This document shows positions 4,580 to 27,396 of a stretch of 32,000 bases of DNA, in pieces. Under the pieces are notes generated by a model. That model had not been told where the DNA came from and did no database searches. It was given only the letters and a program-made list of their open reading frames with translations. Both the position numbers and the translations under genes were made by a program. Position 1 is the first letter of the stretch; each line of letters starts with the position of its first letter. The DNA lies in assembly GCA_963662715.1 (NCBI GenBank), contig OY759724.1, positions 150,001 through 182,000 of the forward strand, in the 5' to 3' direction. This stretch comes from Candidatus Omnitrophota bacterium. Lineage in GTDB: Bacteria; Omnitrophota; Gorgyraeia; Zapsychrales; JANLHA01.

Positions 4580-5323
4580 TCAATCCCACAACAGTTCTTT
4601 CATTGTTTCAAAGAGGGAAATATTGTCATAGGGTTTGGTAAGATAGGCATCGGCACCGACTTGTTTGCCTAAAAGGCGATTTTCAGTGCCTGACCGGGCG
4701 GTGAGCAGAACGATATTAATATTGCGATATCTGTTATCAAACTTTATCATCCTGCAGACGTTGAAGCCATCGACTTTAGGCATCATAACATCAAGGAGCA
4801 TCAAATCAGGATTTTCGTGCTTGGCTCGCTCCAAGGCTTGTAAGCCGTCATAGGCGGTTATAACATCGTACCCGCTCTTCACCAAGCGGAGGGATAGGAT
4901 ATCCACAAAGTCCGGTTCATCATCAACAACGAGGATCTTTTTTGTCTTTTTGGCTAACCGGGTCCGGATCTTGTTAATCAACTGGATGGTCTTAAAAGGC
5001 TTAACAATATAATCATTAATCCCCTCACACTTAAAAACATCCTGTTTGGTTTCGTAAGAAGACAGGATAATTAAAGGCGTTTCTTTCAGTTCATGCTTTT
5101 TCTTGAATTGCGCGACAAATTCATAACCGTCCATAACAGGCATTTGAATATCCAGGCAGATGACATCGGCCCCCTGTTTCTTAAAGACCTGCAGGCCTTC
5201 TTTCCCGTTGTTCGCTGTGACAACCTCAAAGCCATGTTTTTCAAGGACGACCTTTAATAAATGCCGCGTCACTTGATCATCATCTATGACGAGAATTTTC
5301 TTTCTTTCTTCCACTGCTCTCAC
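4580..5323 (-). CDS. Response regulator with two tandem receiver (REC) domains and no output domain
   Basis: 247 aa. REC1 shows ILVIDDD...VICLDIQMPVMDG...YIVKPF. REC2 shows ILVVDDE...LMLLDVMMPKVDG...LLTAR...YLTKPY. The listed start is GTG; an alternative GTG at 5314 has a better SD (AGGTGA 5 nt upstream). Confidence 0.85.
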   Translation of the reverse strand: MRAVEERKKILVIDDDQVTRHLLKVVLEKHGFEVVTANNGKEGLQVFKKQGADVICLDIQMPVMDGYEFVAQFKKKHELKETPLIILSSYETKQDVFKCEGINDYIVKPFKTIQLINKIRTRLAKKTKKILVVDDEPDFVDILSLRLVKSGYDVITAYDGLQALERAKHENPDLMLLDVMMPKVDGFNVCRMIKFDNRYRNINIVLLTARSGTENRLLGKQVGADAYLTKPYDNISLFETMKELLWD

Positions 5324-5416
5324 CTTATTTTATGAACGACTGCCTGACCTTTTCCTGGCCGTTCTCAACCGGGAACATGCCCCCGGAATCTCAGCTAAAA
5401 AAATGAATCGATGAGG

Positions 5417-5446
5417 ATTATAACATCTTTCTGCATATCCTGACAA
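5417..5446 (-). promoter_or_regulatory. Putative sigma70-type promoter for the tandem-REC gene
   Basis: The minus strand reads TTGTCA (5446-5441), an 18-nt spacer, then TATAAT (5422-5417). This lies about 95 nt upstream of the start codon. It is a sequence match only. Confidence 0.35.
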
Positions 5447-5716
5447 TTTAATAATAGCATTTTACCCGCAGCATGTTTTCCCGGCAGCTGACTGCACCTA
5501 AACAACCTGCTTGCTATTTTTCCCCGGCCTCCTCTCAGGCGACGATTCAGCAAATGGCTCAACAACCATTAACGTCAACACAATCCACCTCCCTTTTTAT
5601 ACCGTGCTGGACAATTTTGTCGGAGATTTGCGGCAGGCCTTACAGGCCCGGAGGGAAGCCATGCGACAGCCGTTCAAGGGAAGAGACGCAGGGGAAGGAA
5701 GGACAGAAGAAAGGTG

Positions 5717-6364
5717 TTATTCTGCCTCGTTATTTTTTTCGGCCTTTTTGCGCTCCTTTTCCAATATGCGCTTGACCAAATTATGCCTCTTTTCTATACG
5801 CGGGTACTCTTTATCATCCTGGGCAATATATTCCTCGGCTTTCGAATAAAAGTGATCAACTTTTTCGTAATCCTTCATTTTATAAAACACATCTGCCAGA
5901 GTCACATAGGCGGGCCAATAATCCTCCTGCACGAGCACGCTCTGCGACGCAAACTCAACAGCTTTTACATATGGTTCATTATTGGAAAAACTGAAGGAAT
6001 TAAAAAAACCTTTTTGATAATAGGCCTGAGCGATGTTATTTAATAATTCCGCTTTAAATCCGGGATCTTTAATCCTTTTCTGCTCAACACGGTCCAAGGC
6101 CCTGAAATAGATGCTCAGCGCCTCATCATACTTTCTCTGCTCAACAAGGTCTAAAGCATCTTCATTCATTTTCCTCACGCCTAAGGTTTGCTTCCGGACA
6201 TACTTCTTGGCATTCCTTCCCTTCTTGTTTTCATCCTCCACAATCACGGAAATGGCACCTGATTCTTCCGCATAAATGACCGCCGGAGACAAAAAAAGCG
6301 AAAAGACCAACATCATTAAAATTTTACGACTTACCGATAAGGTTAAATATTTCATGGGTATCAC
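5717..6364 (-). CDS. Exported TPR-like repeat protein (function unknown)
   Basis: 215 aa. It has an N-terminal signal peptide (KILMMLVFSLFLSPAVIYA/EE) and TPR-like helical repeats (YDEALSIYFRAL, NNIAQAYYQKG, YVTLADVFYKMKDYEKV). Confidence 0.6.
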   Translation of the reverse strand: MIPMKYLTLSVSRKILMMLVFSLFLSPAVIYAEESGAISVIVEDENKKGRNAKKYVRKQTLGVRKMNEDALDLVEQRKYDEALSIYFRALDRVEQKRIKDPGFKAELLNNIAQAYYQKGFFNSFSFSNNEPYVKAVEFASQSVLVQEDYWPAYVTLADVFYKMKDYEKVDHFYSKAEEYIAQDDKEYPRIEKRHNLVKRILEKERKKAEKNNEAE

Positions 6365-7546: not shown

Positions 7547-10500
7547 TTATTCAACGTCTTTCTCTTCTTTATTCATGGCTTGTGCCGCTAAATGCTGATA
7601 AATGGCCCATCGTTTGTAAACGTCCTCCTGAGCCTCTTCAAGCAATTTTTTCGCCCGCTCCGGCATGCTCTTTGAGAGCATAACAAAACGGTTTTCTCTA
7701 TAAGCATAATCTTTCAGCGGGATTTTGGGGGCTGCGGAATCCATGACCAGAGGATTCTTCCCTTCCTTAACCAGATCCGGATTAAACCGGAACAAAGGCC
7801 AATATCCGGACTGGACAGCCATTTTCTGATTTTCGAAGCCTTTTTGCATATCAATGCCGTGGGCGATACAATGGCTGTAAGCAATAATCAAAGAGGGCCC
7901 GTCATACTTTTCCGCCTCGATAAATGATTTGACCGTATGTTCGTCTTTAGCCCCCAAAGCAACATTGGCGACATAAACCGAACCATAGGTCATGGCCATA
8001 CGGGCCAAGTCTTTTTTGGCAACAGGTTTGCCGGCCGCAGCGAATTTGGCCACCGCAGCGCGAGGCGTTGCTTTGGAAGCCTGTCCCCCCGTGTTCGAGT
8101 AGACTTCCGTATCCAGGACAAGAACATTAATATTACGGCCGGAGGCGAGAGCGTGGTCCAATCCTCCGTAACCGATATCATAGGCCCAGCCATCTCCACC
8201 AAGAATCCACACGCTCTTTTTGACCAATAAATCAGCCAAACTTAATAAATGCTTGGCTTCGTTTGTGTTCATGGTCCCCAGCTTCTTTTTCAGTTCCTCA
8301 ACGCGTTTTCTTTGGGCAAAGATAACCGCCTCTTCAGACTGTTCAGCCTCTAATAATTCCTTGACGAGAGCCGTGCCGATCTGGGCTTCCATTTTCTTTA
8401 ACAGTTCACGGGCAAATTCCGTGTGTTTATCTACGGTTAAACGAAACCCTAACCCAAACTCGGCATTATCCTCAAAAAGAGAGTTTGACCATGTCGGCCC
8501 CCGGCCTTCTTTATTGACAGTCCAGGGTGTCGTAGGCAGATTGCCGCCGTAAATGGAAGAACATCCTGTGGCATTGGCAATAATAGCGCGGTCGCCGAAC
8601 AGCTGGGACAGGAGCTTGACATAAGGTGTTTCACCGCACCCGCCGCAAGCCCCGGAGAATTCGAATAGAGGACGCAGGCTTTGCACCCCGCGGACCGAAC
8701 TTTGTTTAACTTTTGTCCGGTCGGTATCCGGGATTGAAAGGAAATATTCCCAGTTGTTCTTTTCCGGCTCCCTTAAAGGAGGCTGGGGCTGCATATTGAT
8801 AGCTTTCAACTTCGTCTCTTTTTTGTTTTTGGCCGGACAAATTTGCGTACAGACAGAACAGCCCGTACAATCTTCCGGCGCCACTTGGATTGTAAATTTC
8901 ATGCCAGAAAAATCGCGGTCTTTCGCATCGGCGGACTTAAACGTCTCCGGCGCTTTTTCTGCATATTGCGGATCATAAATCTTACTCCGGATAACCGCAT
9001 GCGGACAGACAAGAATACATTTCCCGCACTGGATACAAACGTCCGGGTCCCAGACAGGAATCTCCAAAGCGATATTCCGTTTTTCCCACTGCGTCGTTCC
9101 TGAAGGGAACGTCCCGTCAATCGGCATGGCGCTGACCGGCAATTGATCCCCCCGGGCCGCGATGATCTCTGCCGTAACCTTCTTCACAAAATCCGGGGCT
9201 TTATCAGACACCGGGGCTTTCAGCTCTATCTGACTGGTCGCGCTCGCAGGCACATCAACCTTATGCAAGTGGGCCAGGGTCTGATCGACAGCATTAAAGT
9301 TCATCTGGACGACATCTTCTCCTTTGCGTCCGTAGGTCTTTTTAATGGATTCTTTAATTTTCTCGATGGCCTCGTCTTTGGGCAGGACTCCGGAGATGGC
9401 AAAAAAGCAGGTCTGCATAATTGTATTGATACGCAGCCCCATCCCCGTATCTTTAGCCACCTGATACCCGTCTATGACATAAAACTGTATCTTTTTCTTA
9501 ATGATCTGTTCCTGAATGACTCTGGGGATATGCTCCCAGATCGCCTCCGGTCCGATAGTCGTATTCAGCAGGAAAACGCCGTTGTCCGCGATCTTTTCCA
9601 ACACATTGTATTTTTCCAGAAAGACAGCCTGATGACATCCCACAAAGTTCGCCTGAGAAATCAAATATGTCGCGCGGATGGGGTTCGGGCCAAAACGCAG
9701 GTGGGAAACGGTCATGGAGCCGGATTTCTTGGAATCGTAAACAAAATAGCCCTGGGCATAATTCGGCGTGTTCTCCCCGATAATTTTTATCGTGCTCTTG
9801 TTGGCGCCTACTGTTCCGTCGGCCCCGAGCCCGTAAAAAATGGCGCACACGCCCTCTTCGTCTTCAATCGAATAGTTTTCATCGTACTCAAGACTCGTGT
9901 GGGTGACATCATCATTGATGCCTATCGTGAAGTGGTTCTTGGGCTCTGCTTTAGTGCCGTTGTCCAAGACCCCTTTAACCATAGCCGGAGTAAATTCTTT
10001 CGACGACAATCCGTAACGGCCGCCCAAGACTTTCGGGAAAGCCTTAAACTTTTCAGCCCCGCATTCAAAAATAGTATTCACGACATCCTGATATAACGGT
10101 TCGCCGATGGATCCCGGTTCCTTGGTCCGGTCTAATGCGGTAATGACTTTGACTGTATCAGGAAGTGCCGCCAGCAGATGTTTCATCGAGAACGGACGGT
10201 ATAAACGGACTTTGATCAAGCCGACTTTCTGTCCCTGGGAGGCCAGTTTTTCAACGGCCATCTGACAGGTTTCCGCACCTGACCCCATAACAATGATGAC
10301 ATGCTCGGCATCCGGCGCCCCGTAATAGTCAAACAATTTATACGCCCGGCCCGTTGTCTTTGCAAACTGCTCCATCACTTTTTCAACGATAGCCGGACAT
10401 TTGTCATAATAAGGATTCACGGTCTCTCTGCCCTGGAAGAAAACATCCGGATTCTGTGCCGTACCTCTTATGCAGGGACGGTCCGGGGACAAACCTCTCT

Positions 10501-11113
10501 GGCGGTGGGCCAGGACCAGGTCATCATTAATTACCGCTTTAATATCTTCATCCGTTAGAAGTTCGATTTTAGAAACTTCGTGGGAGGAGCGGAACCCGTC
10601 AAAAAAGTGCAAAAACGGGACACGGGATTCCAATGTCGCGGCCTGGGCAATCAGGCCGAAATCCATAATTTCCTGTATACTGCCGGAAGCGATCATCGCA
10701 AAACCCGTTGAACGCGTGGCCATGACATCTGAATGGTCGCCGAAAATCGATAAAGCCTGGCAGGCGACAGAACGGGCTGCGACATGAAATACGGTTGCGG
10801 TGAGTTCTCCGGCAATTTTGTACATGTTTGGGATCATCAACAGCAATCCCTGAGACGCGGTGAACGTCGTAGTCAGGGCTCCGGTCTGCAAAGCCCCGTG
10901 AACCGCACCGGCGGCCCCTCCCTCGCTCTGCATCTCCTGAACAAGAGGGACCGTTCCCCAGATATTCGTCTTTCCCAAGGCAGCCCATTCATCCGACTTT
11001 TCCCCCATGGGAGAAGACGGTGTAATCGGATAAATAGCTATAACTTCATTCACTTTAAAAGCTGAATAAGCGGCAGCTTCATTCCCATCGATTGTCACTT
11101 GTTCTCTTTTCAT
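7547..11113 (-). CDS. nifJ: Pyruvate:ferredoxin (flavodoxin) oxidoreductase, single-polypeptide form
   Basis: 1188 aa. It has an internal 2x[4Fe-4S] domain (CIQCGKCILVCP, CTGCSVCTQICP), an extra Cys cluster GACGGCGETPY and the TPP motif GGDGWAYDIGYGGLDH. Length and domain order are typical of NifJ/Por. Confidence 0.97.
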   Translation of the reverse strand: MKREQVTIDGNEAAAYSAFKVNEVIAIYPITPSSPMGEKSDEWAALGKTNIWGTVPLVQEMQSEGGAAGAVHGALQTGALTTTFTASQGLLLMIPNMYKIAGELTATVFHVAARSVACQALSIFGDHSDVMATRSTGFAMIASGSIQEIMDFGLIAQAATLESRVPFLHFFDGFRSSHEVSKIELLTDEDIKAVINDDLVLAHRQRGLSPDRPCIRGTAQNPDVFFQGRETVNPYYDKCPAIVEKVMEQFAKTTGRAYKLFDYYGAPDAEHVIIVMGSGAETCQMAVEKLASQGQKVGLIKVRLYRPFSMKHLLAALPDTVKVITALDRTKEPGSIGEPLYQDVVNTIFECGAEKFKAFPKVLGGRYGLSSKEFTPAMVKGVLDNGTKAEPKNHFTIGINDDVTHTSLEYDENYSIEDEEGVCAIFYGLGADGTVGANKSTIKIIGENTPNYAQGYFVYDSKKSGSMTVSHLRFGPNPIRATYLISQANFVGCHQAVFLEKYNVLEKIADNGVFLLNTTIGPEAIWEHIPRVIQEQIIKKKIQFYVIDGYQVAKDTGMGLRINTIMQTCFFAISGVLPKDEAIEKIKESIKKTYGRKGEDVVQMNFNAVDQTLAHLHKVDVPASATSQIELKAPVSDKAPDFVKKVTAEIIAARGDQLPVSAMPIDGTFPSGTTQWEKRNIALEIPVWDPDVCIQCGKCILVCPHAVIRSKIYDPQYAEKAPETFKSADAKDRDFSGMKFTIQVAPEDCTGCSVCTQICPAKNKKETKLKAINMQPQPPLREPEKNNWEYFLSIPDTDRTKVKQSSVRGVQSLRPLFEFSGACGGCGETPYVKLLSQLFGDRAIIANATGCSSIYGGNLPTTPWTVNKEGRGPTWSNSLFEDNAEFGLGFRLTVDKHTEFARELLKKMEAQIGTALVKELLEAEQSEEAVIFAQRKRVEELKKKLGTMNTNEAKHLLSLADLLVKKSVWILGGDGWAYDIGYGGLDHALASGRNINVLVLDTEVYSNTGGQASKATPRAAVAKFAAAGKPVAKKDLARMAMTYGSVYVANVALGAKDEHTVKSFIEAEKYDGPSLIIAYSHCIAHGIDMQKGFENQKMAVQSGYWPLFRFNPDLVKEGKNPLVMDSAAPKIPLKDYAYRENRFVMLSKSMPERAKKLLEEAQEDVYKRWAIYQHLAAQAMNKEEKDVE

Positions 11114-12809: not shown

Positions 12810-14135
12810 TTACATATTTTTTAACAGTAAATTTTCCGGAGCCTTTTCAGCCTGGGTCCGGAAAAACTGCAAACATTGCTGAATCTTCTCTATTTCATGC
12901 GAATGAATGACCGGCATTTCATTGATGCCTTTGTCATCCAATATTTCATTGACCTTCATAACCGTCAGTGCATCAATATCAAAAGCCGGCTGATATCCTG
13001 TTTCCCGGCCTTCTTCCAGTTTAACTTCAGTCAAAACCCCGGCTTCCGTCAAGTCAAAAAGAATCTGCCGGAGCAGACGTATGGGAATTTCTATTTCTTT
13101 GACAATGGCCGCAGCGGTCCAGGGCTTCAGCGAAAGGTGAAAATTCTTGACACACATTTGCACGATCTTAAGCGCTAACGTGCGCTTCAGGGAATGACTC
13201 GCTTTAAGGCAGTCGGGTTCGAGTTCATAAGTTTCTACGTTCTGTTCTGCAAACGAAATTTCAGCGCCAAAAAGGACAATGATCCAGCTCGTCTGCAGCC
13301 AGACAAGGAATAAAGGCAAAGCGGCAAAACTTCCGTAAATAGCGCCATATTTGGCCACGCCGACCTGAAAGGCAATATACAGCCATTGAACAAGCTGGTA
13401 TATTGTTCCGCCGATAATGCCTCCGAACAAACCGGACTTAAACTGAACCCGGGTGTTGGGCATAAAGATATAAATGTAGGTAAAGAGCACCCAAATGACA
13501 CAATAGGGCAGCAAACTCAAAACAGAAAAAATAAGCGGGCTGAAAACCCCTAAGAAGGCAATTTTTTCGACAACGAGGGTGACCTGGCTCGTGACCAAGA
13601 CCGTAACGCTGCTGGACATGATAAGAAGCAGCGGACAAATGAGCATAATGGACAGATAGTCGCTGAATTTCCTGCCCCAGGTTCTTGCTTTCTGTATCCC
13701 CCAGATATCGTTAAAAGAACTTTCTATATTCCCCAGGACTTTGATGACCGTCCAAAAGAGAACAGCCACCCCCACGCCTGCGATGAGGCCGCCTTTGGTG
13801 GTCTCCAGCAATGACTGCGAAAAGCTGATAATACGTCCGACCACTTCTTCCTGTCCTGTCAGTTTTTCGTACAATTGCTTTTCCAGAAGTTTTTCTATCC
13901 CGAATCCTTTGGCAATACCAAAAGCCATGGCGACAAAAGGAACGATAGATAAAAGGGAATAAAATGTAAGGGCAGAAGCGCGCAACTGACACTTGTCTTC
14001 ATCAAATCCCCGAAGGGCCAAAAGCATAATTCGCAATTGTTTGATCCAGAAAGATTGCGTCTTCGGGAGTTTATGGACCTGGATCCGCCAGATATCGACT
14101 TTAAGAAAATGAATGAGTTGAGCTAATTTTGCCAT
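12810..14135 (-). CDS. YihY/BrkB family integral membrane protein with a C-terminal extension of about 130 aa (winged-helix-like)
   Basis: 441 aa. It has the YihY signature region RASALTFYSLLSIVPFVAM and about 6 TM helices. A soluble tail follows (AAAIVKEIEIPIRLLRQILFDLTEAGVLTEV). Confidence 0.8.
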   Translation of the reverse strand: MAKLAQLIHFLKVDIWRIQVHKLPKTQSFWIKQLRIMLLALRGFDEDKCQLRASALTFYSLLSIVPFVAMAFGIAKGFGIEKLLEKQLYEKLTGQEEVVGRIISFSQSLLETTKGGLIAGVGVAVLFWTVIKVLGNIESSFNDIWGIQKARTWGRKFSDYLSIMLICPLLLIMSSSVTVLVTSQVTLVVEKIAFLGVFSPLIFSVLSLLPYCVIWVLFTYIYIFMPNTRVQFKSGLFGGIIGGTIYQLVQWLYIAFQVGVAKYGAIYGSFAALPLFLVWLQTSWIIVLFGAEISFAEQNVETYELEPDCLKASHSLKRTLALKIVQMCVKNFHLSLKPWTAAAIVKEIEIPIRLLRQILFDLTEAGVLTEVKLEEGRETGYQPAFDIDALTVMKVNEILDDKGINEMPVIHSHEIEKIQQCLQFFRTQAEKAPENLLLKNM

Positions 14136-14356
14136 AAAGGGCTGACTCCTTTTTTATATTCCGGGGAAGACTTTTGATAAAGCCAAAAATAGGCCGATTC
14201 CTTAACTTTATTAGTTATCCACTTTTATGCTGTTTTATATTAGTATACTTCTTCTTTTCGTTCCAGTTATTTCTCAATGACACCTGCCCTTACGATAGCA
14301 CACGGATCGATTTAAAATAAAACCGGCAATTAAGTGGAATTAAATATTGTGTCCCC

Positions 14357-14392
14357 AAAATTATGGCTGTAAAATTATGCTGTTGCCAACAG
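14357..14392 (+). promoter_or_regulatory. Tandem near-repeat plus 13-bp palindrome upstream of the NosR-like gene; candidate operator
   Basis: AAAATTATGGCTGT (14357-14370) is followed directly by AAAATTATGCTGT (14371-14383). CTGTTG-c-CAACAG (14380-14392) lies about 35 nt upstream of the ATG at 14426. Function is not established. Confidence 0.3.
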
Positions 14393-14425
14393 TCACCGGA
14401 TCCTTAGACGCATATAAGTCATATC

Positions 14426-15790
14426 ATGAGATATAAAATCTTCAGCTTTATTTTTGCCTGTACTCTCCTGGCCGGCATGTTTTCCCGGATATCCGCCCCC
14501 CGCAGCCAGATGCCTCAAAACCTGCCGGAAGAAATCCGTTACTGCCGGGTCTTATTCCCCCGGGCGGAAGACGTCAATATCTCCGCAACAGAGCCTCCCC
14601 ACTTTGAAATCTATACGACAAAAAATAAAACAAAGACGCTCAGCGGTTACGCTTTCCGCACCACACAACTAGTTCCTGATATTCAAGGATATGCCGGCCC
14701 GATCGATCTGCTTGTCGGTATCGATTTGACGGGAACAATCCAGGGGATTTATCTTATCTCCCATCAGGAAACACCCGCCTATGCCAAAGACCGGGAATCC
14801 TTTCTGGAACAGTTTCTGCACCGAGGACCGGGAGATCCCCTGCGGCTTGGACAGGATATCGATGCCATAACTCAGGCCACGATTACAAGTTCCGCGATTA
14901 CCCGCAGCATCAAGGAAAGCCTGCAGATTATGGGCCGGGACGTTCTGTCCCAGAAACCGGTACATTCCGAAGAACAAACAACGGTGTTCCCTTGGGATCA
15001 GCTTGTTGTTCCGGCCATCCTTTTTCTTTTGGCCGGCTTAAGCCTTTTCCTCAAACGGCCTCAACTCCGCTGGCTGGCGCTTGTCGGCGGGTTTATCTAT
15101 CTGGGGGTGTGGAAGGGCACCATGGTGGCGGCCACACATGTGGCCAATATCGGACTCCTGAACTTCCCTGAATTTTCCGATTCCCCGTTATGGTATGCTC
15201 TCATGACGGCAACGATTGCGTCCGGCTTTATGTTGGGGATGCTTTACTGCGGAAGCATCTGCCCCTTTGCCGCGGCTCAGGAATTCTTATTTAAAATGGG
15301 ACAGAAACTTTTTAAATACAAACTGTGCCCTTCCGAAAAAATTGATGCAAGGGCCAAATATTTTAAATATCTTTTACTGCTGGGGCTCCTGGCCGTCAGC
15401 CTGGCCTGGGGGAATCCCGACATCGCTAATGTGGAAGTTTATGTAACTCTTTTTACCCGGCACGGGACAGCTTTAGCCTGGACATTGCTCGGTCTGATGA
15501 TGCTGACAGGGCTCTTTCAGTATCGTTTTTGGTGCAGATACTTCTGCCCCATAGGTGCGATGAACGGCCTTTGCTCTTCCTGGAGTCTGTTTAAAATTCA
15601 AATCAACGAAACATGCAATCTCTGCCGGCATTGCCGGGACATCTGCCCGACCCAAGCCATTCGTCAGTCAGAGACGCAAGATAAAATTTTTATCGACCAT
15701 CCCGAGTGCATCTTATGCCAGAAATGCCTCCTGGAATGCCCTCAGGGAGCCGTATCATTCACTTCGGCCAAACATGAAAAAAAACGATAA
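14426..15790 (+). CDS. NosR/NirI/NapH-like membrane flavo-iron-sulfur protein (FMN_bind domain, polytopic CxxxCP region, C-terminal 2x[4Fe-4S] ferredoxin)
   Basis: 454 aa. It has an N-terminal signal anchor and an FMN_bind-like domain with a DAITQATITSSAI site. About 5 TM helices carry CGSICPFAAAQE and CRYFCPIGAMNG. The C-terminus has CNLCRHCRDICP and CILCQKCLLECP. Confidence 0.8.
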   Translation: MRYKIFSFIFACTLLAGMFSRISAPRSQMPQNLPEEIRYCRVLFPRAEDVNISATEPPHFEIYTTKNKTKTLSGYAFRTTQLVPDIQGYAGPIDLLVGIDLTGTIQGIYLISHQETPAYAKDRESFLEQFLHRGPGDPLRLGQDIDAITQATITSSAITRSIKESLQIMGRDVLSQKPVHSEEQTTVFPWDQLVVPAILFLLAGLSLFLKRPQLRWLALVGGFIYLGVWKGTMVAATHVANIGLLNFPEFSDSPLWYALMTATIASGFMLGMLYCGSICPFAAAQEFLFKMGQKLFKYKLCPSEKIDARAKYFKYLLLLGLLAVSLAWGNPDIANVEVYVTLFTRHGTALAWTLLGLMMLTGLFQYRFWCRYFCPIGAMNGLCSSWSLFKIQINETCNLCRHCRDICPTQAIRQSETQDKIFIDHPECILCQKCLLECPQGAVSFTSAKHEKKR

Positions 15791-16049
15791 AATATTTTTA
15801 TTCCTCTTCTTGTCAGGCGGCGTCCTTTTGCTCAGCGTTATCCAGACAAATATACTCCATTCCGCAAAGCCTCAGACAGAACAAACAGTCAGTCAAGAAG
15901 CACCCCCTCCGGAAAAACAGCCGGACAACAGCAAGACAGGACAGGAAGAACCAGCGGAAGAAGAAAACCAGCACCAAAACGAACAACCACCAACGGATTC
16001 ATCCGGGCTCAAGCTGCATGAAGCCTTATACTGGAAACCGGGTGATTAA
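15774..16049 (+). CDS. 91-aa signal/anchor peptide with a Q/E/P-rich linker and a C-terminal HEALYWKPGD. It may be the detached N-terminal module of the downstream radical SAM enzyme.
   Basis: The N-terminus is MKKNDK followed by the hydrophobic stretch IFLFLFLSGGVLLLSVI, then a low-complexity acidic linker. The ORF overlaps the upstream gene by 17 nt. It is in the same frame as the radical SAM ORF, separated from it only by TAA plus 9 nt. Confidence 0.5.
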   Translation: MKKNDKIFLFLFLSGGVLLLSVIQTNILHSAKPQTEQTVSQEAPPPEKQPDNSKTGQEEPAEEENQHQNEQPPTDSSGLKLHEALYWKPGD

Positions 16050-16058
16050 AAACAGATT

Positions 16059-17045
16059 ATGGGAAAAATAGTCGAATGTGAACTGTGCCCCCGGCATTGC
16101 CGGCTCTCTGACGGACAGCGGGGGAATTGCCGGGCACGGATCAACCGGAATGGGAAGCTTTACAGCCTGGTATACGGAAATCCTTGCGCTGTGCATGTTG
16201 ATCCGATTGAAAAGAAACCCTTGTTTCATGTTCTTCCGGCAACCGGAGCTTTTTCTATAGCGACGGCCGGATGTAATTTACATTGCAAATACTGCCAGAA
16301 CTGGCAAATCTCCCAGAGACCACCGGAAAAAACTTTCAATTATGATTTACCCCCCGAACACGTCGTGCAGAAAGCGCTGGAAACGGACTGCCGCAGCGTT
16401 GCTTATACTTACTCAGAGCCGATCATATTTTATGAATATATGCTGGACACCGCCAAACTGGCCCGGCAAAAAAACCTTTTAAACGTCATGGTCACCGCCG
16501 GCTACATCGAGCGCCGGCCGCTCCTGAATCTTTGTCCGTTCATTGATGCCGCCAATATCGATCTCAAAGGGATTACGGACGATTATTACCGCAGGATGTC
16601 CGAAGCCACCCTGCAGCCGGTCCTGGATGCGATCATGATCATGAAACAGAACAACGTCTTTGTAGAATTGACGAATCTCATTGTCCCGACCTGGAACGAC
16701 AAAGAAAAAGATATCCGGGCGCTCTGCCGGTGGGTGGCGCAGAATCCCGGGAAAGACACTCCGGTTCATTTCTCCCGGTTCACCCCGATGCACAAGCTCA
16801 AGAATCTGCCGCATACTCCGGTAGAAACACTCACCATGGCCTGGGAAATCGCTCAGGAAGAAGGTCTGCAGTTTGCCTATGTCGGGAATGTTCCCCGGCA
16901 TCGCGGGAATAACACCTACTGTCCTCAGGACAAAAAACTCCTGATCAAACGCATCGGATATATCATTCTGGAGAATAATATCAAGAACGGGGCCTGTCCC
17001 TACTGTCAGGCCCCGATCCCCGGCATCTGGGGAAAAAATATGTGA
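16059..17045 (+). CDS. Radical SAM enzyme, AmmeMemoRadiSam-system / PflA-like activase type
   Basis: 328 aa. It has an N-terminal Cys cluster CELCPRHC...GNC, then KLYSLVYGNPCAVHVDPIEKKPLFH, and the radical SAM motif CNLHCKYCQNWQIS. The family assignment is from memory of TIGR04337-type sequences. Confidence 0.85.
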   Translation: MGKIVECELCPRHCRLSDGQRGNCRARINRNGKLYSLVYGNPCAVHVDPIEKKPLFHVLPATGAFSIATAGCNLHCKYCQNWQISQRPPEKTFNYDLPPEHVVQKALETDCRSVAYTYSEPIIFYEYMLDTAKLARQKNLLNVMVTAGYIERRPLLNLCPFIDAANIDLKGITDDYYRRMSEATLQPVLDAIMIMKQNNVFVELTNLIVPTWNDKEKDIRALCRWVAQNPGKDTPVHFSRFTPMHKLKNLPHTPVETLTMAWEIAQEEGLQFAYVGNVPRHRGNNTYCPQDKKLLIKRIGYIILENNIKNGACPYCQAPIPGIWGKNM

Positions 17046-17053
17046 GGGGTCAA

Positions 17054-17221
17054 ATGAAACACATAAAAATGGACAGAAAAAGCTTCTTAAAATGGTTAGG
17101 GACCTTTTTCATCGGGCTTATCGCAGGACGCCGTTTTCGGGAAGACTCTTCCGGAGAGGAAAAAAAATACCGGGGACACGAAGCGCAATTTTATAAATCA
17201 GCCGACCGGTTGGCCGGTTAA
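17054..17221 (+). CDS. Unlisted 55-aa ORF: Tat-like/hydrophobic N-terminus with a C-terminal DSSG...HEAQFYK motif
   Basis: It translates as MKHIKMDRKSFLKWLGTFFIGLIAGRRFREDSSGEEKKYRGHEAQFYKSADRLAG. A GAGGGG SD lies 4 nt upstream of the ATG. The ORF is below the 60-aa track cutoff. Its stop overlaps the convergent gene's stop by 3 nt (17219-17220 in 17218-17220). Confidence 0.4.
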   Translation: MKHIKMDRKSFLKWLGTFFIGLIAGRRFREDSSGEEKKYRGHEAQFYKSADRLAG

Positions 17222-19491
17222 ACGGCAGACTCGCCCCTCTTGAGCAATAACCAGACAGCCCCATTCATAAGGGCCAGGAAACAGGCCACCTGCACCATCC
17301 CCCACAAGGGGATCAAAAGGGTCCCGGTCAAAACCGCCCCGGCCGTGGCGCCCAGAACATCAATGGCATATGTTTCGCCCGCAGAAGAAGCCACACTCTT
17401 CTTTCCGCCGGAATTATAGTCTAATAAAGAAACCGCCAAAGGATACTGTGCCCCGCCAAAATAGCCGGCCATGACAGGCAATGCCGTATATGTCATCGCA
17501 ATCATCCCGCCGTTCCCGGGAGGGAAAACGGCACGCTGATAAACAAAGAAAACGACCGGAAGGAAAACCGGATAAACAGAAATAGCGGCTTGTATTTTTT
17601 GATAGGTCCGCCATTGTTCTTCAACGGGCGCGCTTAACCATTGCACCGCCCTTAAACTCCCGGCAATAAGGCCGATCATAAAAAACGCCAGTATCAGACC
17701 GATTTGATAATAGGCGTAACCATAAAGGGCCTGGAAAGATAAAATGACAATAATCTGAAATGCAATTTCCGAGAACCCGGTGGTCAGCATCGACAGTTTC
17801 ACCGGGAAAGCGGCAGACGATTTGAACCGACAAACACCCAACAAAAAGAGGCCTCCGGGAATCAGCCATAACAGCAGCTGCAATCTTTGCATCCGGCTGA
17901 ACAAAGTCTTAAACAGGGAGTTAAAATGCGAGGACCACAACAGAGTATCATATAAATACGCAATAGGATGAGCATCGGTGTTGATATCACCTTCTTTTTG
18001 CAGGACATCTTCAATATATGCAATGCGGTCTGCGCTCATCTTATAAGGCAGATAGTACTCCCGGACATATTCCGTTCTAATGCCCCTTTCGCGCAAACGG
18101 CTCAAGTACAGATTGGCATCATAGGACAAAACACCCTTTTGCTGACAGGCTAAAAAGATGCTGGTGTCTCCCGGGATGGATTTCACATCGGCAAAAACAG
18201 CTTTTAATGTTGAGTGGATCGACCGGAGAAAAGCCCGGGCTTCTTCATTGAGGTAATTTTCCGAGGAAGAAACAGCCAGAGAGATTATCCCTCCCTGCTT
18301 AAGGTTCCCCCGGACCTCCTGAAAAAATTCCAGGGTATAATAACGGTTGATCATCGCGTTGAGCGGATCGGCCAGATTTAAAATAATCAGGTCATATGTC
18401 TGACCGGAATTCTTCAAAAGCAAGCGGGCATCGGCAAACCTGATTTGCAGTCTGGGATCACGAAGGGGCTCGAGGACATCCTCCGGCAATGTCTGCGCAG
18501 CCAAACGGATGACCTGCGGGTCAAGATCAATATAATCGACGTGATCCACCGGATACTTTAAAATCTCCCTTAAGCTTCCGTCTAAAGCACTGCCGATCAA
18601 TAAAACATCTTGGGGCCGGGGATGCGCCAGCATCGGAAAATGAATGATCTCCTCACTGCTGTATTCCTCCCTCGTGGAGAAAGATAATACCCCGTTCTCG
18701 TATAGGATCCGGTCATGCCCCCCTTCCACCATCGTAAGGTTCCCGTATTTGGAATCGCTGATCCCTAAAATCCTGAATCCCTGCCATTGGACACTACGGG
18801 ACCAGTGATCCGTTTTTTGCATCCCTCCCGTCAGGATAAAAACGGCGAAAGCCAGGAACAGGCTCAAATGAACGAAGCGTCTTCTCGGAGCACGCAACAT
18901 CATAACGGACATAACGGACAAATTGATAAAACTGACAACAAACGCGATATGCAGAGCAGGAAATCTCTGAACCAGGAAAAAGCTGAAAATCAGCCCGCCG
19001 ACAGCAGACCCCAGAGCTTCGGTTAAATAAATCCGGCTGACGCTGACGACATGTTTCCGCTTAAGTCCGTCTGATTCGGCCCATCGGCAAACTAATGAAT
19101 AAATACTTCCAAAAACGAAAGCCAGGGGCGCCACTTCAAAAAAATCGATCAGGAAAATCATGGGGATACCGACGATCTCTCCCAGGGGGATATTCAAGAC
19201 AGACCGAAGCACGCGCATTGAACAAACCGTAAGGGGCACTCCGGCCGAGACTCCGTACAATAAAAACAATAAAGATGTCTCCGGGTGACGGCCTGGCCAC
19301 GCGAACCGGCTTGCGGCGAAACTCCCCAGGCCGACCCAGAACAACCAGCAGCCGAGAATAATGGCATAGGCTGTTTCATTCCCGTAAAAGACGGCAATCG
19401 CTTCTCTCAACAGGACGACCTGACTGACAGCGGCGCTCAAGCCGAGAATAAAAGCAAAAAGAATCTGCTGTTTATTGATTCTGAACATCAT
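17218..19491 (-). CDS. Fused polytopic membrane protein / spermidine synthase-like methyltransferase-fold protein
   Basis: The longest ORF is 784 aa (to 19572), but that start overlaps the upstream SDR gene by 44 nt. The MMFRINKQ start at 19491 has an AGGGGA SD 9 nt upstream. About 7 TM helices precede a SpeE-like core (VLLIGSALDGSLREIL, IDLDPQVI, DLIILNLADP), followed by about 6 more TM helices. Confidence 0.75.
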   Translation of the reverse strand: MMFRINKQQILFAFILGLSAAVSQVVLLREAIAVFYGNETAYAIILGCWLFWVGLGSFAASRFAWPGRHPETSLLFLLYGVSAGVPLTVCSMRVLRSVLNIPLGEIVGIPMIFLIDFFEVAPLAFVFGSIYSLVCRWAESDGLKRKHVVSVSRIYLTEALGSAVGGLIFSFFLVQRFPALHIAFVVSFINLSVMSVMMLRAPRRRFVHLSLFLAFAVFILTGGMQKTDHWSRSVQWQGFRILGISDSKYGNLTMVEGGHDRILYENGVLSFSTREEYSSEEIIHFPMLAHPRPQDVLLIGSALDGSLREILKYPVDHVDYIDLDPQVIRLAAQTLPEDVLEPLRDPRLQIRFADARLLLKNSGQTYDLIILNLADPLNAMINRYYTLEFFQEVRGNLKQGGIISLAVSSSENYLNEEARAFLRSIHSTLKAVFADVKSIPGDTSIFLACQQKGVLSYDANLYLSRLRERGIRTEYVREYYLPYKMSADRIAYIEDVLQKEGDINTDAHPIAYLYDTLLWSSHFNSLFKTLFSRMQRLQLLLWLIPGGLFLLGVCRFKSSAAFPVKLSMLTTGFSEIAFQIIVILSFQALYGYAYYQIGLILAFFMIGLIAGSLRAVQWLSAPVEEQWRTYQKIQAAISVYPVFLPVVFFVYQRAVFPPGNGGMIAMTYTALPVMAGYFGGAQYPLAVSLLDYNSGGKKSVASSAGETYAIDVLGATAGAVLTGTLLIPLWGMVQVACFLALMNGAVWLLLKRGESAV

Positions 19492-19528
19492 CAATATAAA
19501 TCCCCTAAAAGACTTCTCCTGCGGGTTT

Positions 19529-20545
19529 TTACGGTTTCTTTCTATAGGGAGGCTTAACCCACGGCGGATCACCCGGGTAACGATGTTCCGGATGAGGGTA
19601 TCCTTTCAGGGACGCCTCCTCTTCAGGGGGAGATTCCACCCCTAAAGAAAAACGAATGGCTTGTTTGCAGGTGATTAATGTCTGAGGAATCAGTCTCCGG
19701 ATCTGGTTATCTTCGCAAACAACTTTATTCTTTAACCCTTCTGCCAGAGGTCTTGCCAGCGAGGCAGAAATAGGGGTGACGAAACTGATCCAATAAGAAC
19801 TGAGCCGGGGGCTCAGGACAGGAACCGGGATGATGAGGCGGGGCCGGTGCCCTTCCTCTTTGGCAAAAATGTTCATCAACTGCCTGTAGGTCACTATCTC
19901 GGGTCCGCCGATATCAAAAGTTTTCCCTGCCGTCTCTCCGCACTCCAAGCATCCCGTCAGATAAGTCAAAACATTTCGAACGGCTATCGGCTGGGACTCC
20001 GTGTGCAGCCACTTCGGGGTTATCATGATCGGCAAGCGGTCAACGAGATAACGCATAATCTCAAAAGAAGCGCTTCCGGCCCCCAGGATCACGGCGGCCC
20101 GCAGAATCGTCGTGGGGACGGACCCCGACTGTAAAATTTCCCCGACTTCAACACGCGAACGCAAATGTTTACTCAACTGCTCTTTGTCAGCGGCTAACCC
20201 CCCGAGATACAATATCCTCCTCAACCCGTGGACCCCGGCGGCTTTGACAGCATTCTGAGCTGCCTCCCGGTCAGCCTGAACGAAATCTTTATGCGTCGGG
20301 TCCATGGAATGAACAAAATAATACAGGGCCTCACATCCTTCACACGCACGAAGAACGGCAGGATAATCCATGAGATCCGTAGGGCTGAGCTCAACATGAG
20401 GATGGCCGGACCACATCCGCTTTTTCAAGGCAGGAAGAGACCGGCTTGCCGCCCGGATGAAATATCCCTGGGCAAGAAGACGGGGGATCAGGCGGCTCCC
20501 CACGTATCCGGAAGCTCCCAGAACCAATATTCTCTTTATGGCCAT
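19529..20545 (-). CDS. NAD(P)-binding SDR / NmrA-like epimerase-dehydratase family protein
   Basis: 338 aa with the Rossmann motif ILVLGASGYVGSRLIPRLL. It has the atypical-SDR length and layout. Confidence 0.75.
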   Translation of the reverse strand: MAIKRILVLGASGYVGSRLIPRLLAQGYFIRAASRSLPALKKRMWSGHPHVELSPTDLMDYPAVLRACEGCEALYYFVHSMDPTHKDFVQADREAAQNAVKAAGVHGLRRILYLGGLAADKEQLSKHLRSRVEVGEILQSGSVPTTILRAAVILGAGSASFEIMRYLVDRLPIMITPKWLHTESQPIAVRNVLTYLTGCLECGETAGKTFDIGGPEIVTYRQLMNIFAKEEGHRPRLIIPVPVLSPRLSSYWISFVTPISASLARPLAEGLKNKVVCEDNQIRRLIPQTLITCKQAIRFSLGVESPPEEEASLKGYPHPEHRYPGDPPWVKPPYRKKP

Positions 20546-21064: not shown

Positions 21065-23491
21065 CTATTGAGGAATCTGCACTTTTAAATAATGCCCCAG
21101 TTGATTAAAAAAATCCATCCAGACTTTTGCATTCTCATCCCCCAGACTTGCCCGGTTCTTCATATTGCCGTAGCGTTCCTTCCCGATGGAAAAATAAATG
21201 TTCTGGGCTTTCCACAAGTCGACATTCAACTGCAGGGGACTGCAAATACGCAGTAACGTGGCCAGGTTTTTCAAAGGCGTCACATCCGACGGGTTCTCAT
21301 AAACAGAACCCATCAATGTATTGACTTTTTTGCGGAGCATAAATTCTAAAGTAACCCGGTCAATTTCAAAAGACCATTCGATAACCTCTGAAACGAGCTG
21401 TTCCAGTTTTTTGAAATCGGGCTCGTCATCCCCGATGACATGCAGGATATCGGTGTTCAGCATGACCAGCACCGTGTTCGCCAGGACTTTGGGAAGCGGG
21501 ATATGCAGCTGCTTGATAACCTGGATAATCGGATAATGGTGTTCGTTAATCTGCCGGAGGGAGACCTCGATCTCTTCCAGGGTTGTGTGCAGGATCTGAT
21601 ATAAAATCTTTGTCTGTTCATCCTTGAATAAATGCCAGAGGGAATAATTGCCGCCGTCAAAATTCTGTTCAATCGAATTAATTGTCCCGGTGATGTCTCC
21701 CCGGCGGAAGACCTCTTTCAGGTCATGCTGCATCTTCACAAAACTCTTTTCGTCCAAAAAGGGCCTCACGCCGCCGATGATATTGTGGTCTCCCAGGTGA
21801 AGGACAGCGAAAGTGATCACCTGTTCTTCCCAGGTAATATCGGATCTGATCAAGGCTTTCCCGACAGCGAATTTCAGCTTCCCGACTTCCGAACAATCAT
21901 AAAGCTGATCGACGGCCGTATAGCTGTAAATGGTCGTTGTCTGGGCGTATTCTTCAAAAAGCGAAGAAACGGCATAATGGGCCGCGACACGAACGAGGTC
22001 CAAGACCCTCGGCTTGACCAATTGTTCATAAACAACCGCCCCGTTCTTGAATTTAGGAATATTGCTTGGGGCTTTTTTCAAAAAATTCAAAAAGTTGTCT
22101 TCCAGCGGTTTGGAACTAATATCGCTGGCCAGCTGAATTGTCCTGGCGGCATACTGCAATATCTGAACGGTTTCAATGCCGGAGATCTCGTCAAAGAACC
22201 ATCCGCAACTCGTATACATCAACATGGCGTGCCGCTGAATTTCCATCAACTTCAATATCTTGATCTCTTCTGTCCGGTTGAGCTTCTTTTTGGCATGTCG
22301 GGAAAAAAATTCTTCAATATTTTCCGAAGAACGGTCTAAAATAACATCAATGTAATCATTCCTGGCTAACCAGGGGTCTTTGATCAGTTTCTTTGTCTCT
22401 GACTCGTAGATATGAATCAGCTGGTCCCGCAGCCAGTCCAAAGCCTCCCGAAGCGGCTGCCGCCAGGACTGGGTCCACCCCGCGTGCATACCGGAATGAC
22501 ATCCGCAGTTCGTTCTCCAGCGTTCAATGCCGTGAATGCAGCTCCACGAAGAGTTCTCAAAGATTTCCACTTCCTCTTCCGGGGGATGCTGGGCCAAAAA
22601 TTCTCCGTAATTCGTAAATTCGGCTAAATTATTCGTCCGGACATGATTGATGCAGTAAGCCAAGGCCATATCCCCCAAGTTATGATGATGACCGTACGTT
22701 TCCCCGTCCGTGGCGATATGAACCATCTGCACCTCGTCATCCTGAGAGAAAGCCCCTATAAGCCTGTTGGCAAATTCTTCGCCGTTCTCCAAAAGTCTTT
22801 CAAAGGCGATGCCTTGTGAAATAGGACCGTCATAGAAAAACAACGTGATTGTTTTTCCGGAAGGCAAATGACACATATAGGGTTTACGGGGGTTGATCTT
22901 GCTGCCGCTGACGTCTGTCCATTTCTTCTCCTTTTTTTTCCGCACCCTTTTGGCCTGCCGCGGGGCCAGAATCGTAAACGAAATCCCATGCTGACCAAGC
23001 AGATCCAACGTCTCTAAATCCACCGCCGTCTCCGGCAGCCACATCCCCTCGGCTTTCCGGCCGAAACGGAATTCAAAATCCTTGAGCCCCCAGACCACCT
23101 GCGTAAGCTTGTCGCGAGAATTGGCCAAAGGCATAATCATATGGTTATAACACTGCGCCAGGGCTGAACCATGTCCGGAAAAAGTCTGCCGGCTTTCGAT
23201 ATCCGCCTGAACAATCGCCTGATGGGCTTCGGGTTCGTTACGATGCATCCAGGACAAAAGCGTAGGGCCGAAGTTGAAGCTGATCTGAGAGTAATTGTTG
23301 ACGATATCAATAATATTTTTATGGGCATCGAGAATGCGGGAGGCGGTGTTCGTCGCATAACATTCCGCGGTAATTCTCTGATTCCAGTCATGGAAAGGAT
23401 ACGCAGACTCCTGCATTTCGACTTCTTCAAGCCAGGGATTTTCCCTCGGAGGCTGATAAAAATGGCCATGGATACACATATAACGATTCAT
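21065..23491 (-). CDS. Glycoside hydrolase family 57 protein (long form with a C-terminal DUF3536-like region)
   Basis: The longest ORF runs to 23539. The conserved N-terminus MNRYMCIHGHFYQPPRENPW begins at 23491. A catalytic-region motif IATDGETYGHHH is present. Confidence 0.85.
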   Translation of the reverse strand: MNRYMCIHGHFYQPPRENPWLEEVEMQESAYPFHDWNQRITAECYATNTASRILDAHKNIIDIVNNYSQISFNFGPTLLSWMHRNEPEAHQAIVQADIESRQTFSGHGSALAQCYNHMIMPLANSRDKLTQVVWGLKDFEFRFGRKAEGMWLPETAVDLETLDLLGQHGISFTILAPRQAKRVRKKKEKKWTDVSGSKINPRKPYMCHLPSGKTITLFFYDGPISQGIAFERLLENGEEFANRLIGAFSQDDEVQMVHIATDGETYGHHHNLGDMALAYCINHVRTNNLAEFTNYGEFLAQHPPEEEVEIFENSSWSCIHGIERWRTNCGCHSGMHAGWTQSWRQPLREALDWLRDQLIHIYESETKKLIKDPWLARNDYIDVILDRSSENIEEFFSRHAKKKLNRTEEIKILKLMEIQRHAMLMYTSCGWFFDEISGIETVQILQYAARTIQLASDISSKPLEDNFLNFLKKAPSNIPKFKNGAVVYEQLVKPRVLDLVRVAAHYAVSSLFEEYAQTTTIYSYTAVDQLYDCSEVGKLKFAVGKALIRSDITWEEQVITFAVLHLGDHNIIGGVRPFLDEKSFVKMQHDLKEVFRRGDITGTINSIEQNFDGGNYSLWHLFKDEQTKILYQILHTTLEEIEVSLRQINEHHYPIIQVIKQLHIPLPKVLANTVLVMLNTDILHVIGDDEPDFKKLEQLVSEVIEWSFEIDRVTLEFMLRKKVNTLMGSVYENPSDVTPLKNLATLLRICSPLQLNVDLWKAQNIYFSIGKERYGNMKNRASLGDENAKVWMDFFNQLGHYLKVQIPQ

Positions 23492-23544
23492 ACTCACATC
23501 ATTCCTTTCATTAGAAGCGCAACCCCTGCGCGGGAACAAACACG

Positions 23545-27377: not shown

Positions 27378-27396
27378 AGGTCTTTACGATGACAGG

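Follow-up and report, generated by a model that had tools for sequence, protein, structure and literature searches.

Where in the cell does a radical S-adenosylmethionine (SAM) enzyme work, and what reduces it, when the first element of its fold is missing from the enzyme and is instead carried twice by small proteins with membrane-targeting segments, encoded on either side of it? This question is raised by four co-directional genes, overlapping or nearly abutting, at positions 14426-17221 of a 32-kb stretch of contig OY759724.1 from a Candidatus Omnitrophota bacterium. The whole stretch that was analysed is called the window below. The four genes encode a NosR/NapH-like flavo-iron-sulphur membrane protein (hereafter NosR-like), a first small protein (pep1), a radical SAM enzyme of the AmmeMemoRadiSam type (rSAM) and a second small protein (pep2); their coordinates are collected in Table 1. 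A first-pass annotation had delimited the same four open reading frames (ORFs) and had read them as a possible membrane-coupled radical SAM module. Its coordinates were recovered unchanged, its domain calls were borne out by Pfam and NCBIfam searches, and the membrane-coupled module is supported by the present analysis. For all comparisons, 80 genomic loci around relatives of the rSAM were fetched and analysed by scripts (L-numbers below). Among these fetched loci the closest relatives of the enzyme belong to metagenome-assembled Candidatus Omnitrophota genomes, with identities of up to 81%. We give somewhat better than an even chance to the reading that the locus is a gene-fission variant of the AmmeMemoRadiSam enzyme, wired to a transmembrane electron conduit.

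The N-terminal element of the enzyme and its two detached copies

The rSAM of the window scored 363.9 bits against TIGR04337 (cut-off 220), with an alignment starting at model position 12. The protein begins 6 residues before the first Cys of its C-x2-C-x3-C motif and lacks model positions 1-11, which correspond to an EAxYY element, in the same polypeptide; this element is found on pep1 and pep2 instead. In the full-length enzyme of L052, model position 1 is the 'A' of EAKYY, and in that of L023 position 3 is the first Y of EALYY. Full-length enzymes, with ORFs of 360-460 aa, were found in 40 of the 80 loci. They start with a twin-arginine translocation (Tat) signal (31 loci, RRxF[LI]K-type signals thus being present on 31 of the 80 rSAMs) or with a hydrophobic anchor (9 loci), followed by a linker, by [KRH]-E-A-x-[YF]-Y and, about 9 residues further, by the C-x-L-C-P-x-x-C motif that opens the catalytic protein. 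The window enzyme contains CELCPRHC..C and CNLHCKYC, and the matching columns were invariant in an alignment of 84 sequences.

A model of the full-length Tat-type enzyme of L052 (P0124) was calculated with AlphaFold2 from the 84-sequence alignment and reached a mean pLDDT (predicted local distance difference test) of 89.7. Residues 1-4 and 10-41, which cover the Tat signal and the linker, were disordered, with pLDDT <50. Residues 51-60, including EAKYY, had a mean pLDDT of 98, and strands at 50-51, 55-57 and 63-65 led into a beta-rich N-terminal subdomain. A second AlphaFold2 run, on a pep1-readthrough-rSAM fusion with no alignment, was uninformative (mean pLDDT 39.3). The solved fold nearest to the catalytic core was PflA (PDB 3cb8; Foldseek E=2e-12, TM-score 0.79, identity 17%), which was also matched when the enzyme was searched against the PDB with phmmer (E=2e-6). 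Unlike PflA, the AmmeMemoRadiSam enzyme has Cys-rich additions at both ends, a beta subdomain at the N-terminus and an extension at the C-terminus, visible as invariant Cys columns, and no glycyl-radical enzyme partner is present at this locus. In Pfam the window enzyme matched only PF04055 and, weakly, Fer4_12; neither Pfam nor NCBIfam revealed a domain for peptide recognition such as SPASM or RRE.

With the pep2 profile, intact homologues were detected in 30 loci, each immediately 3' of the rSAM, with E-values of 3e-25 to 8e-8, and one more that is cut by a contig end. Members are 50-68 aa long. Their n-region contains RR in 21 of the 31 (e.g. T-R-R-E-F-L-K), RK in 8, a set that includes the window and its three closest relatives, and RQ in 2. 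The end of the protein is L-A-G-stop in 29/31, after [EKRD]-A-[KRQ]-[YFH]-Y. Since no A-x-A cleavage site was seen when the family alignment was inspected, pep2 probably stays in the membrane as an uncleaved anchor. When compared with the N-terminal extension of the Tat-type full-length enzymes, pep2 aligned over 51 columns that span both the twin arginine and EAxYY (HHalign probability 97.5%, E=5e-12).

Homologues of pep1 were matched by its profile in 20 loci (E 4e-27 to 9e-8), of which 19 lie directly 5' of the rSAM; the copy of L019 is cut by a contig end. They share a K-rich N-terminus, one transmembrane (TM) helix, a short helix and the tail ..AG[LI]xPxEAKYW[KR].., the single TM helix of the window protein being predicted at residues 7-25 by a hydropathy script. 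HHalign related pep1 both to the anchor-type N-terminal extension of full-length enzymes (E=7e-6) and to pep2 (E=3e-6).

The sequence that the first-pass annotation had reported as common to the two peptides, D-S-S-G...H-E-A-x-[YF]-[WY]-K, stands in part. Its EA core is conserved, as [HKR]-E-A-x-[YFH]-[YW] in the relatives, and the synonymous codon differences that had been pointed out are present (D gat/gac, S tca/tct, G ggg/gga, H cat/cac, A gcc/gcg). The DSSG stretch is specific to the window and, not being conserved in relatives, was rejected as part of the motif. As judged from the profile alignments, the shared motif is the enzyme family's own N-terminus.

The occurrences of the detached and attached forms are mutually exclusive. 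Loci with a truncated enzyme contained pep1 and/or pep2 in 36 cases out of 40, and loci with a cis-extended enzyme in 0 out of 40 (Fisher p=2.5e-18). The split points fall in the loop after the first strand: pep1 of the window ends with '..HEALYWKPGD-stop' and the rSAM then starts with 'MGKIVECELCP', to be compared with the contiguous REALYYSKIDDKTVQCELCP of L023, and the short pep2 members ('EARYYKTLAG-stop') terminate just past the canonical 'YYxKL'. According to their coordinates, pep1 and the rSAM are in a common frame in only 3 of 15 loci (the window, L007 and L022), so that they are truly separate genes. Programmed readthrough of the in-frame TAA was rejected on the same count.

Neither small ORF scored above the curated cut-off of any Pfam or NCBIfam family, and the exact pep1 and pep2 sequences were absent from a collection of 15 billion proteins. 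With pep2 as a query, phmmer retrieved 3 matches only from 1.84 billion representative proteins, and a single-sequence search of a 5.8-billion-protein index found no shared words. Because pep2 is nearly invisible in protein databases, the peptide families were built from the DNA loci. A related NCBI assembly of identical synteny annotates both peptides as genes and assigns them to no family. The ratio of non-synonymous to synonymous substitution rates (dN/dS) of pep2 was 0.15-0.21 among L001, L002 and L022, compared with 0.06-0.09 for the rSAM; pep1 was less constrained, with 0.43-0.47 and 1.07 in the closest pair. By these ratios pep2 is under purifying selection and, in view of the profile matches, the conservation of the small ORFs in relatives, which the first-pass annotation had proposed to check, is far beyond chance.

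Taken together, the homology to the N-terminal module of the enzyme, the mutual exclusivity and the conservation lead us to consider with high confidence that pep1 and pep2 are paralogous detached N-terminal modules, composed of a targeting segment and an edge strand, that originated by gene fission. It is also likely that both bind the enzyme in trans. The earlier proposal that they act as partners or targeting modules fits this evidence.

In two loci, L060 (5270-6322, - strand) and L068 (3910-4962, - strand), a second and distant rSAM paralogue of 350 aa is encoded convergently to the Tat-type rSAM. Its similarity to the window enzyme corresponds to E-values of about 1e-8 to 1e-9.

A probable NapH-like electron conduit and its proposed docking tail

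The NosR-like protein matched FMN_bind (PF04205, E=5e-15), Fer4_5 (PF12801, E=1e-12) and a C-terminal 4Fe-4S dicluster in Pfam. It consists of a signal anchor, an extracytosolic FMN_bind domain, a membrane core in which CX3CP occurs twice (at residues 275 and 370) and, at the C-terminus, a 2x[4Fe-4S] ferredoxin domain, and it presents the flavinylation-type sequence D-A-I-T-Q-A-T at residue 146. It scored 90.8 bits against the NosR model NF046105 (cut-off 1000) and 88.6 bits against the NapH model TIGR02163 (cut-off 213). On these scores the protein is related to NosR and NapH but is neither one proper; by its PF12801 core and its N-terminal FMN-binding domain it falls within the flavinylated NapH-like class. 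This class is established: its members transfer electrons outside the cytosol, as modular conduits towards extracytosolic redox enzymes, and for most of them the partner is still unknown (Meheust et al. 2021, PMC8238504). The window protein shares with them the N-terminal extracytosolic FMN_bind domain, the PF12801 core, the two CX3CP motifs and the cytoplasmic 4Fe-4S domain (PMC8238504). It differs by its proposed client, which would be a radical SAM enzyme instead of a respiratory reductase or oxidase, and by the link to this client, which would be the short docking tail of pep1, free or fused. Radical SAM, Memo and AMMECR1 are not mentioned in the main text of PMC8238504.

In an alignment of 21 NosR-like proteins, the Thr of the flavinylation motif was invariant (21/21). 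The residue preceding A-T is Q in the window and G, Q, R or H in the relatives. Both CX3CP motifs were also kept in the 21 proteins, the one deviation being a missing second-motif Pro in L024 and L069. The NosR-like proteins of L008, L011, L014, L017, L018, L020 and L024 have a degenerate ferredoxin domain or none; as these seven relatives keep the membrane CX3CP motifs, the entry point of the electrons may differ between lineages.

In 21 close Omnitrophota loci, the gene directly 5' of the rSAM encodes a NosR-like protein with FMN_bind. All 21 also contain pep1, which is free in 14 of them and fused in 7, where the pep1 module forms the C-terminus of the NosR-like or FMN_bind protein (L004, L008, L013, L014, L016, L017 and L018). 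Three architectures were distinguished. In L013, a signal anchor and FMN_bind are followed directly by the helix and an EAKHW tail; in L004, two TM helices separate FMN_bind from the pep1 tail; in L008, L014, L016, L017 and L018, a full NosR-like protein is continued by one extra TM helix and then by the tail. The number of TM helices predicted by hydropathy between the FMN motif and the tail is 0 (L013), 2 (L004) and 6 (L008, L016, L017, L018). For L014, 5 helices were counted by hydropathy and 6 by homology, the sixth segment being just under the threshold. Because the count is even in every fusion architecture, the putative docking tail should lie on the same side as the FMN domain, which in this protein class is the extracytosolic side (PMC8238504).

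The L013 fusion (5305-5985) is minimal: its FMN_bind domain carries the canonical D-G-I-T-G-A-T and there is no NapH membrane core. The L004 fusion (4893-5735) is of the same type with the two TM helices inserted. No membrane conduit for these two minimal fusions was present in the fetched flanks. Five Zixibacteria-like loci, counted among the 20 with a pep1 match (L036, L048, L050, L053 and L055), combine a truncated rSAM with a pep1-type anchor peptide of sequence ..NLSFEEAKYWRxLE...

Genes of the NapH family also adjoin the rSAM in L069, in L076 and in six Desulfobacterota-type loci (L070, L072-L075 and L077). The neighbourhood recurs, therefore, in separate lineages, namely Omnitrophota, the Desulfobacterota-type loci and L069/L076. 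The recurrence that the first-pass annotation had proposed to look for between NosR-like and rSAM genes is in this way found in the 21 Omnitrophota loci and, with NapH-type neighbours, beside Tat-type rSAMs of other phyla. A Pfam scan of one representative per type showed the FMN domain to be absent in L072 and present in L069.

In the Desulfobacterota-type loci, a NapH-like protein of about 300 aa is encoded 5' of a Tat-type rSAM; that of L072, the only one scanned of its type, has Fer4_5 and 2x4Fe-4S without FMN_bind. This association looks independent of the Omnitrophota one. An HU/IHF-like gene, recognised from its sequence with no family scan, separates the NapH-like gene from the rSAM in L073 and L075. 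The HU/IHF-like, YchF, CarD and PIN-type genes of the Desulfobacterota loci, all read from sequence, were set aside as an unrelated housekeeping context.

Partner proteins, proposed mode of action and alternatives

The AmmeMemoRadiSam system (TIGR04337, AMMECR1 and Memo) is widespread; Memo and AMMECR1 have human homologues, and AMMECR1 has a link to disease. The association of Memo, AMMECR1 and the rSAM was reportedly described by Burroughs et al. in 2019. In the literature searched we found AmmeMemoRadiSam in incidental mentions only, with no biochemical function found assigned. We found neither a description of Tat or lipoprotein signals for this system nor a link between AMMECR1 and twin arginines, an earlier mention in the original description being possible, and we found no description of a periplasmic radical SAM enzyme.

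The absence of AMMECR1 and Memo from the window, reported by the first-pass annotation, was borne out by tblastn with 12 Memo-AMMECR1 proteins (best E=0.12) and by a Pfam scan of the large ORFs. This absence had seemed to imply a system without AMMECR1 and Memo, which is not borne out for the clade: the gene order of the Omnitrophota locus L024 is NosR-like, pep1, rSAM, pep2, a lipoprotein Memo-AMMECR1 fusion and the membrane protein c1 (described below), so that the same block is directly followed by Memo-AMMECR1. Given this arrangement, the four genes of the window appear to be part of the AmmeMemoRadiSam system and not a substitute for it; the Memo and AMMECR1 genes of the window organism probably lie elsewhere in its genome. 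The block resembles the known system by its score above the TIGR04337 cut-off and by the L024 arrangement. It differs from it in that EAxYY is encoded twice, as separate small genes with membrane or Tat targeting segments, in that a NosR/NapH-like protein is part of the block, and in that Memo and AMMECR1 are missing within 32 kb.

Memo-AMMECR1 fusions were found beside the rSAM in 12 loci, L024 and L049 being confirmed by Pfam as representatives. All 12 have a signal or an anchor at their N-terminus; the lipobox pattern matched 7 of them and overlooked the LLLCAC of L058.

One CxxCH haem motif occurs in the N-terminal extension of ten Anaerolineae-type enzymes, with the cytochrome c maturation genes ResB and CcsA adjacent in 9/10 and 8/10, respectively. 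These loci suggest a haem-wired alternative to the NosR-like conduit. They are of the Anaerolineae/Chloroflexota type (L039, L041, L044, L047, L049, L051, L058, L063, L064 and L071), and the Tat signal is present in them as well. A Memo-AMMECR1 fusion is found beside the rSAM in 7 of the 10.

We propose the following mode of action. The truncated enzyme would fold and acquire its clusters in the cytoplasm. There pep2, with its Tat-type signal and its EAQFY..LAG tail, would supply the missing strand in trans to the cofactor-loaded enzyme, and the complex would cross the membrane through Tat as a 'hitchhiker', pep2 remaining as the anchor. On the outer face pep1, composed of a TM anchor, a helix and HEALYW, would present the same strand beside the FMN domain and dock the enzyme. 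The NosR-like protein would pass electrons from the cytoplasm or the membrane through CX3CP-bound and ferredoxin-type clusters and covalent flavin mononucleotide (FMN). Cytoplasmic radical SAM enzymes are reduced by flavodoxin or ferredoxin; here the conduit would replace them, and the electron acceptor at its end would be the [4Fe-4S] cluster of the enzyme. The latter would work with an exported Memo/AMMECR1 partner encoded elsewhere, presumably on an envelope-associated substrate, and its reaction and substrate would be the ones proper to the AmmeMemoRadiSam system.

We rate the chances of export and of electron supply by the NosR-like protein as about even. Rather more tentative is the complete scheme, which would describe the first extracytoplasmic radical SAM enzyme: a folded export by a Tat escort of about 55 aa that donates one strand, a strand exchange to the conduit, a haem alternative in the Anaerolineae-type loci, SAM either held as a bound and regenerated cofactor or handled by c1, and the whole system acting with the lipoprotein Memo-AMMECR1 on an envelope substrate.

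A precedent for such a co-export exists. The small subunit of the Desulfovibrio [FeFe]-hydrogenase is a fission product that carries a Tat signal. More generally, PMC10924467 presents the Tat export of heterodimers with a signal on one partner only as established. As in the co-export of periplasmic hydrogenases, a cofactor-loaded, signal-less Fe-S enzyme is found here beside a small partner of the twin-arginine type. The present case, in which export is a proposal, differs in that the signal partner has about 55 aa and would give a single strand, and in that the proposed electron donor carries another paralogue of this strand, one lacking a Tat signal.

Several points weigh against an exported enzyme fed by the NosR-like protein. 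To our knowledge no radical SAM enzyme works outside the cytoplasm, and we know of no extracytoplasmic supply of SAM. The n-region of the window pep2 is D-R-K-S-F-L-K, with R-K in place of R-R, and pep2 has no match to the Pfam TAT_signal family. Nine full-length relatives (e.g. L023 and L026) have hydrophobic N-termini lacking RR, and a Sec-type route could not export an Fe-S enzyme. The five Zixibacteria-like loci have pep1 without a pep2/Tat escort and without a NosR-like gene. With two peptides and one strand site, a hand-over step would be needed. The canonical flavinylation motif is [S/T]-G-A-[S/T], and Q replaces its G in the window. Like Memo and AMMECR1, ApbE and Tat genes were absent from the 32-kb window in the Pfam scan of large ORFs. 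The numbers of TM helices come from a crude hydropathy script and the signal calls from motifs, and the P0124 model gave confidence values and secondary structure, from which the contacts of the strand were deduced.

Some of these points would suit another arrangement, with no export, in which the peptides and the cis extensions are plain anchors that keep the rSAM at the inner membrane face, where the 2x[4Fe-4S] domain of the NosR-like protein reduces it. We consider such a cytoplasmic tether unlikely. SAM and Fe-S assembly are cytoplasmic, and the ferredoxin-type domain, which is intact in the window protein, could reduce the rSAM cluster; but this domain is degenerate or absent in the seven NosR-like relatives listed above. 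The RK of the window pep2, the anchors without twin arginine of the nine full-length relatives and the Zixibacteria-like loci without any Tat-bearing partner are in line with a tether, whereas the textbook RRxFLK found in 21 of 31 pep2 members and in 31 full-length enzymes is not, and the partner Memo-AMMECR1 proteins are lipoproteins. The predicted topologies also argue for the outer face: an N-in, tail-out orientation is expected of both peptides from their K/R-rich N-termini, the fused tail is parted from the ferredoxin domain by the extra TM helix, and in L013 it comes directly after FMN_bind. Finally, a CxxCH motif accompanied by ResB/CcsA makes sense only outside the cytoplasm.

The first-pass annotation had also considered the peptides as possible substrates. 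They would then be substrates similar to those of RiPP (ribosomally synthesised and post-translationally modified peptide) systems, or protein substrates, with the Tyr/Trp of EAxY[YW] modified in the cytoplasm before export by Sec or Tat. The nearest fold, PflA, is indeed an activase whose target is a protein loop, RiPP loci typically have small conserved ORFs on either side of an rSAM, and the HXS system offers the precedent of an rSAM-matured protein that ends in the periplasm (PMC13128918). The motif is, however, the first element of the family model and is found in cis on the enzyme in 40 loci. This option is disfavoured because the motif is the enzyme's own N-terminal element, and we regard it as very improbable. 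At pLDDT 98 the motif is structured in the model and is no free tail, and no locus has the peptides together with an enzyme that contains it. A fusion of pep1 to the electron-carrier protein exists in seven loci, the enzyme bears no detected peptide-recognition domain, and there is free variation next to the aromatic pair (E/K/R/D/S/H at the first position).

We give hardly any credence to the view that the small ORFs are what is left, in decay and non-functional, of a broken N-terminal region, the truncated enzyme working alone or being a pseudogene: in the window pep1 and the rSAM do share one frame with a single TAA between them, and pep1 is weakly constrained, but both ORFs are open, with anchor and motif kept, across 20-30 diverged loci, the dN/dS values of pep2 and the rSAM are low, frames vary by locus with start/stop overlaps that suggest translational coupling, and simple N-terminal decay cannot produce a pep2 located 3' of the enzyme.

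The locus and its relatives point to the site of the AmmeMemoRadiSam system in many lineages, at or beyond the cytoplasmic membrane, and to its source of power. This narrows the search for its substrate to components of the envelope. If export is real, the view that restricts radical SAM chemistry to the cytoplasm would have to be given up, and the question of SAM supply outside the cell would be raised. Whether or not this holds, the enzyme would constitute a natural protein split at an edge strand, with two detached copies serving export and docking respectively. The fusions identify the partner on which docking would occur, and a new kind of client would be added to the flavinylated NapH-like conduits.

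Layout of the locus and neighbouring genes

Table 1. Features of the radical SAM locus and its convergent neighbour in the window
Feature	Position	Strand	Description
NosR-like protein	14426..15790	+	454 aa; Pfam PF04205, PF12801 and Fer4 families; motif alignment of 21 proteins
pep1	15774..16049	+	91 aa; K-rich N-terminus, one TM anchor, low-complexity linker, putative docking tail ..SGLKLHEALYWKPGD
TAA stop between pep1 and rSAM	16047..16049	+	in the rSAM frame, 9 nt before the rSAM ATG; read as the fission point
AmmeMemoRadiSam-type rSAM	16059..17045	+	328 aa; TIGR04337; N-terminally truncated
pep2	17054..17221	+	55 aa from ATG; Tat-type n-region, hydrophobic segment, tail ..GHEAQFYKSADRLAG-stop
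c1 neighbour	17218..19572	-	784-aa polytopic membrane protein with a central spermidine-synthase-like domain (SAM/decarboxylated SAM fold)

The start of pep1 overlaps the end of the NosR-like gene by 17 nt. A sequence resembling a Shine-Dalgarno site, GAGGGG, precedes the ATG of pep2 by 4 nt, and an alternative GTG start of pep2 at 17042 overlaps the stop codon of the rSAM. A scan of positions 14000-17400 for promoters and terminators gave no excess over shuffled sequences (6 vs 3.7 and 6 vs 5.0, respectively), so the boundaries of the operon were set from the ORF overlaps only.

The c1 gene is convergent in the window, its stop codon overlapping that of pep2. Its product matched PF01564 (E=1e-25) and NF037959, 'fused MFS/spermidine synthase' (42.7 bits, cut-off 40). 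A c1 protein of about 760 aa is encoded near the rSAM in 41 of the 80 loci, across phyla; in nine loci the gene is co-directional and either overlaps the rSAM stop codon or starts at most 23 nt from it. Loci carrying c1 include L023, L026, L027, L032, L038, L046, L059, L062 and L080. A crude topology, with 7 TM helices before the domain and a K/R-rich N-terminus, would place the SAM-fold domain outside the cytoplasm. It may be that c1 is part of the system and has so far been overlooked, possibly with a role in the handling of SAM. In L052, L059, L062 and L080, which belong to Ignavibacteria, Zixibacteria and Aminicenantes, a DUF362 protein (PF04015) is encoded directly 5' of a Tat-type rSAM and c1 follows the rSAM.

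On the other side of the operon, a BrkB/YihY-family membrane protein with a weak C-terminal match to an Rrf2-like winged helix is encoded at 12810-14135 (- strand). The gene is divergent from the operon across an AT-rich spacer of 290 nt, an arrangement kept in L001, L002, L022 and L081, and its product could be a regulator or an accessory component. Further away, the window contains a large pyruvate:ferredoxin oxidoreductase (7547-11113), a GH57-DUF3536 protein (21065-23539) and a carotenoid-type trio at 26721-29716 (- strand), composed of a lycopene cyclase domain protein, a squalene/phytoene synthase and an amine-oxidase-type desaturase. These genes are metabolic context only.

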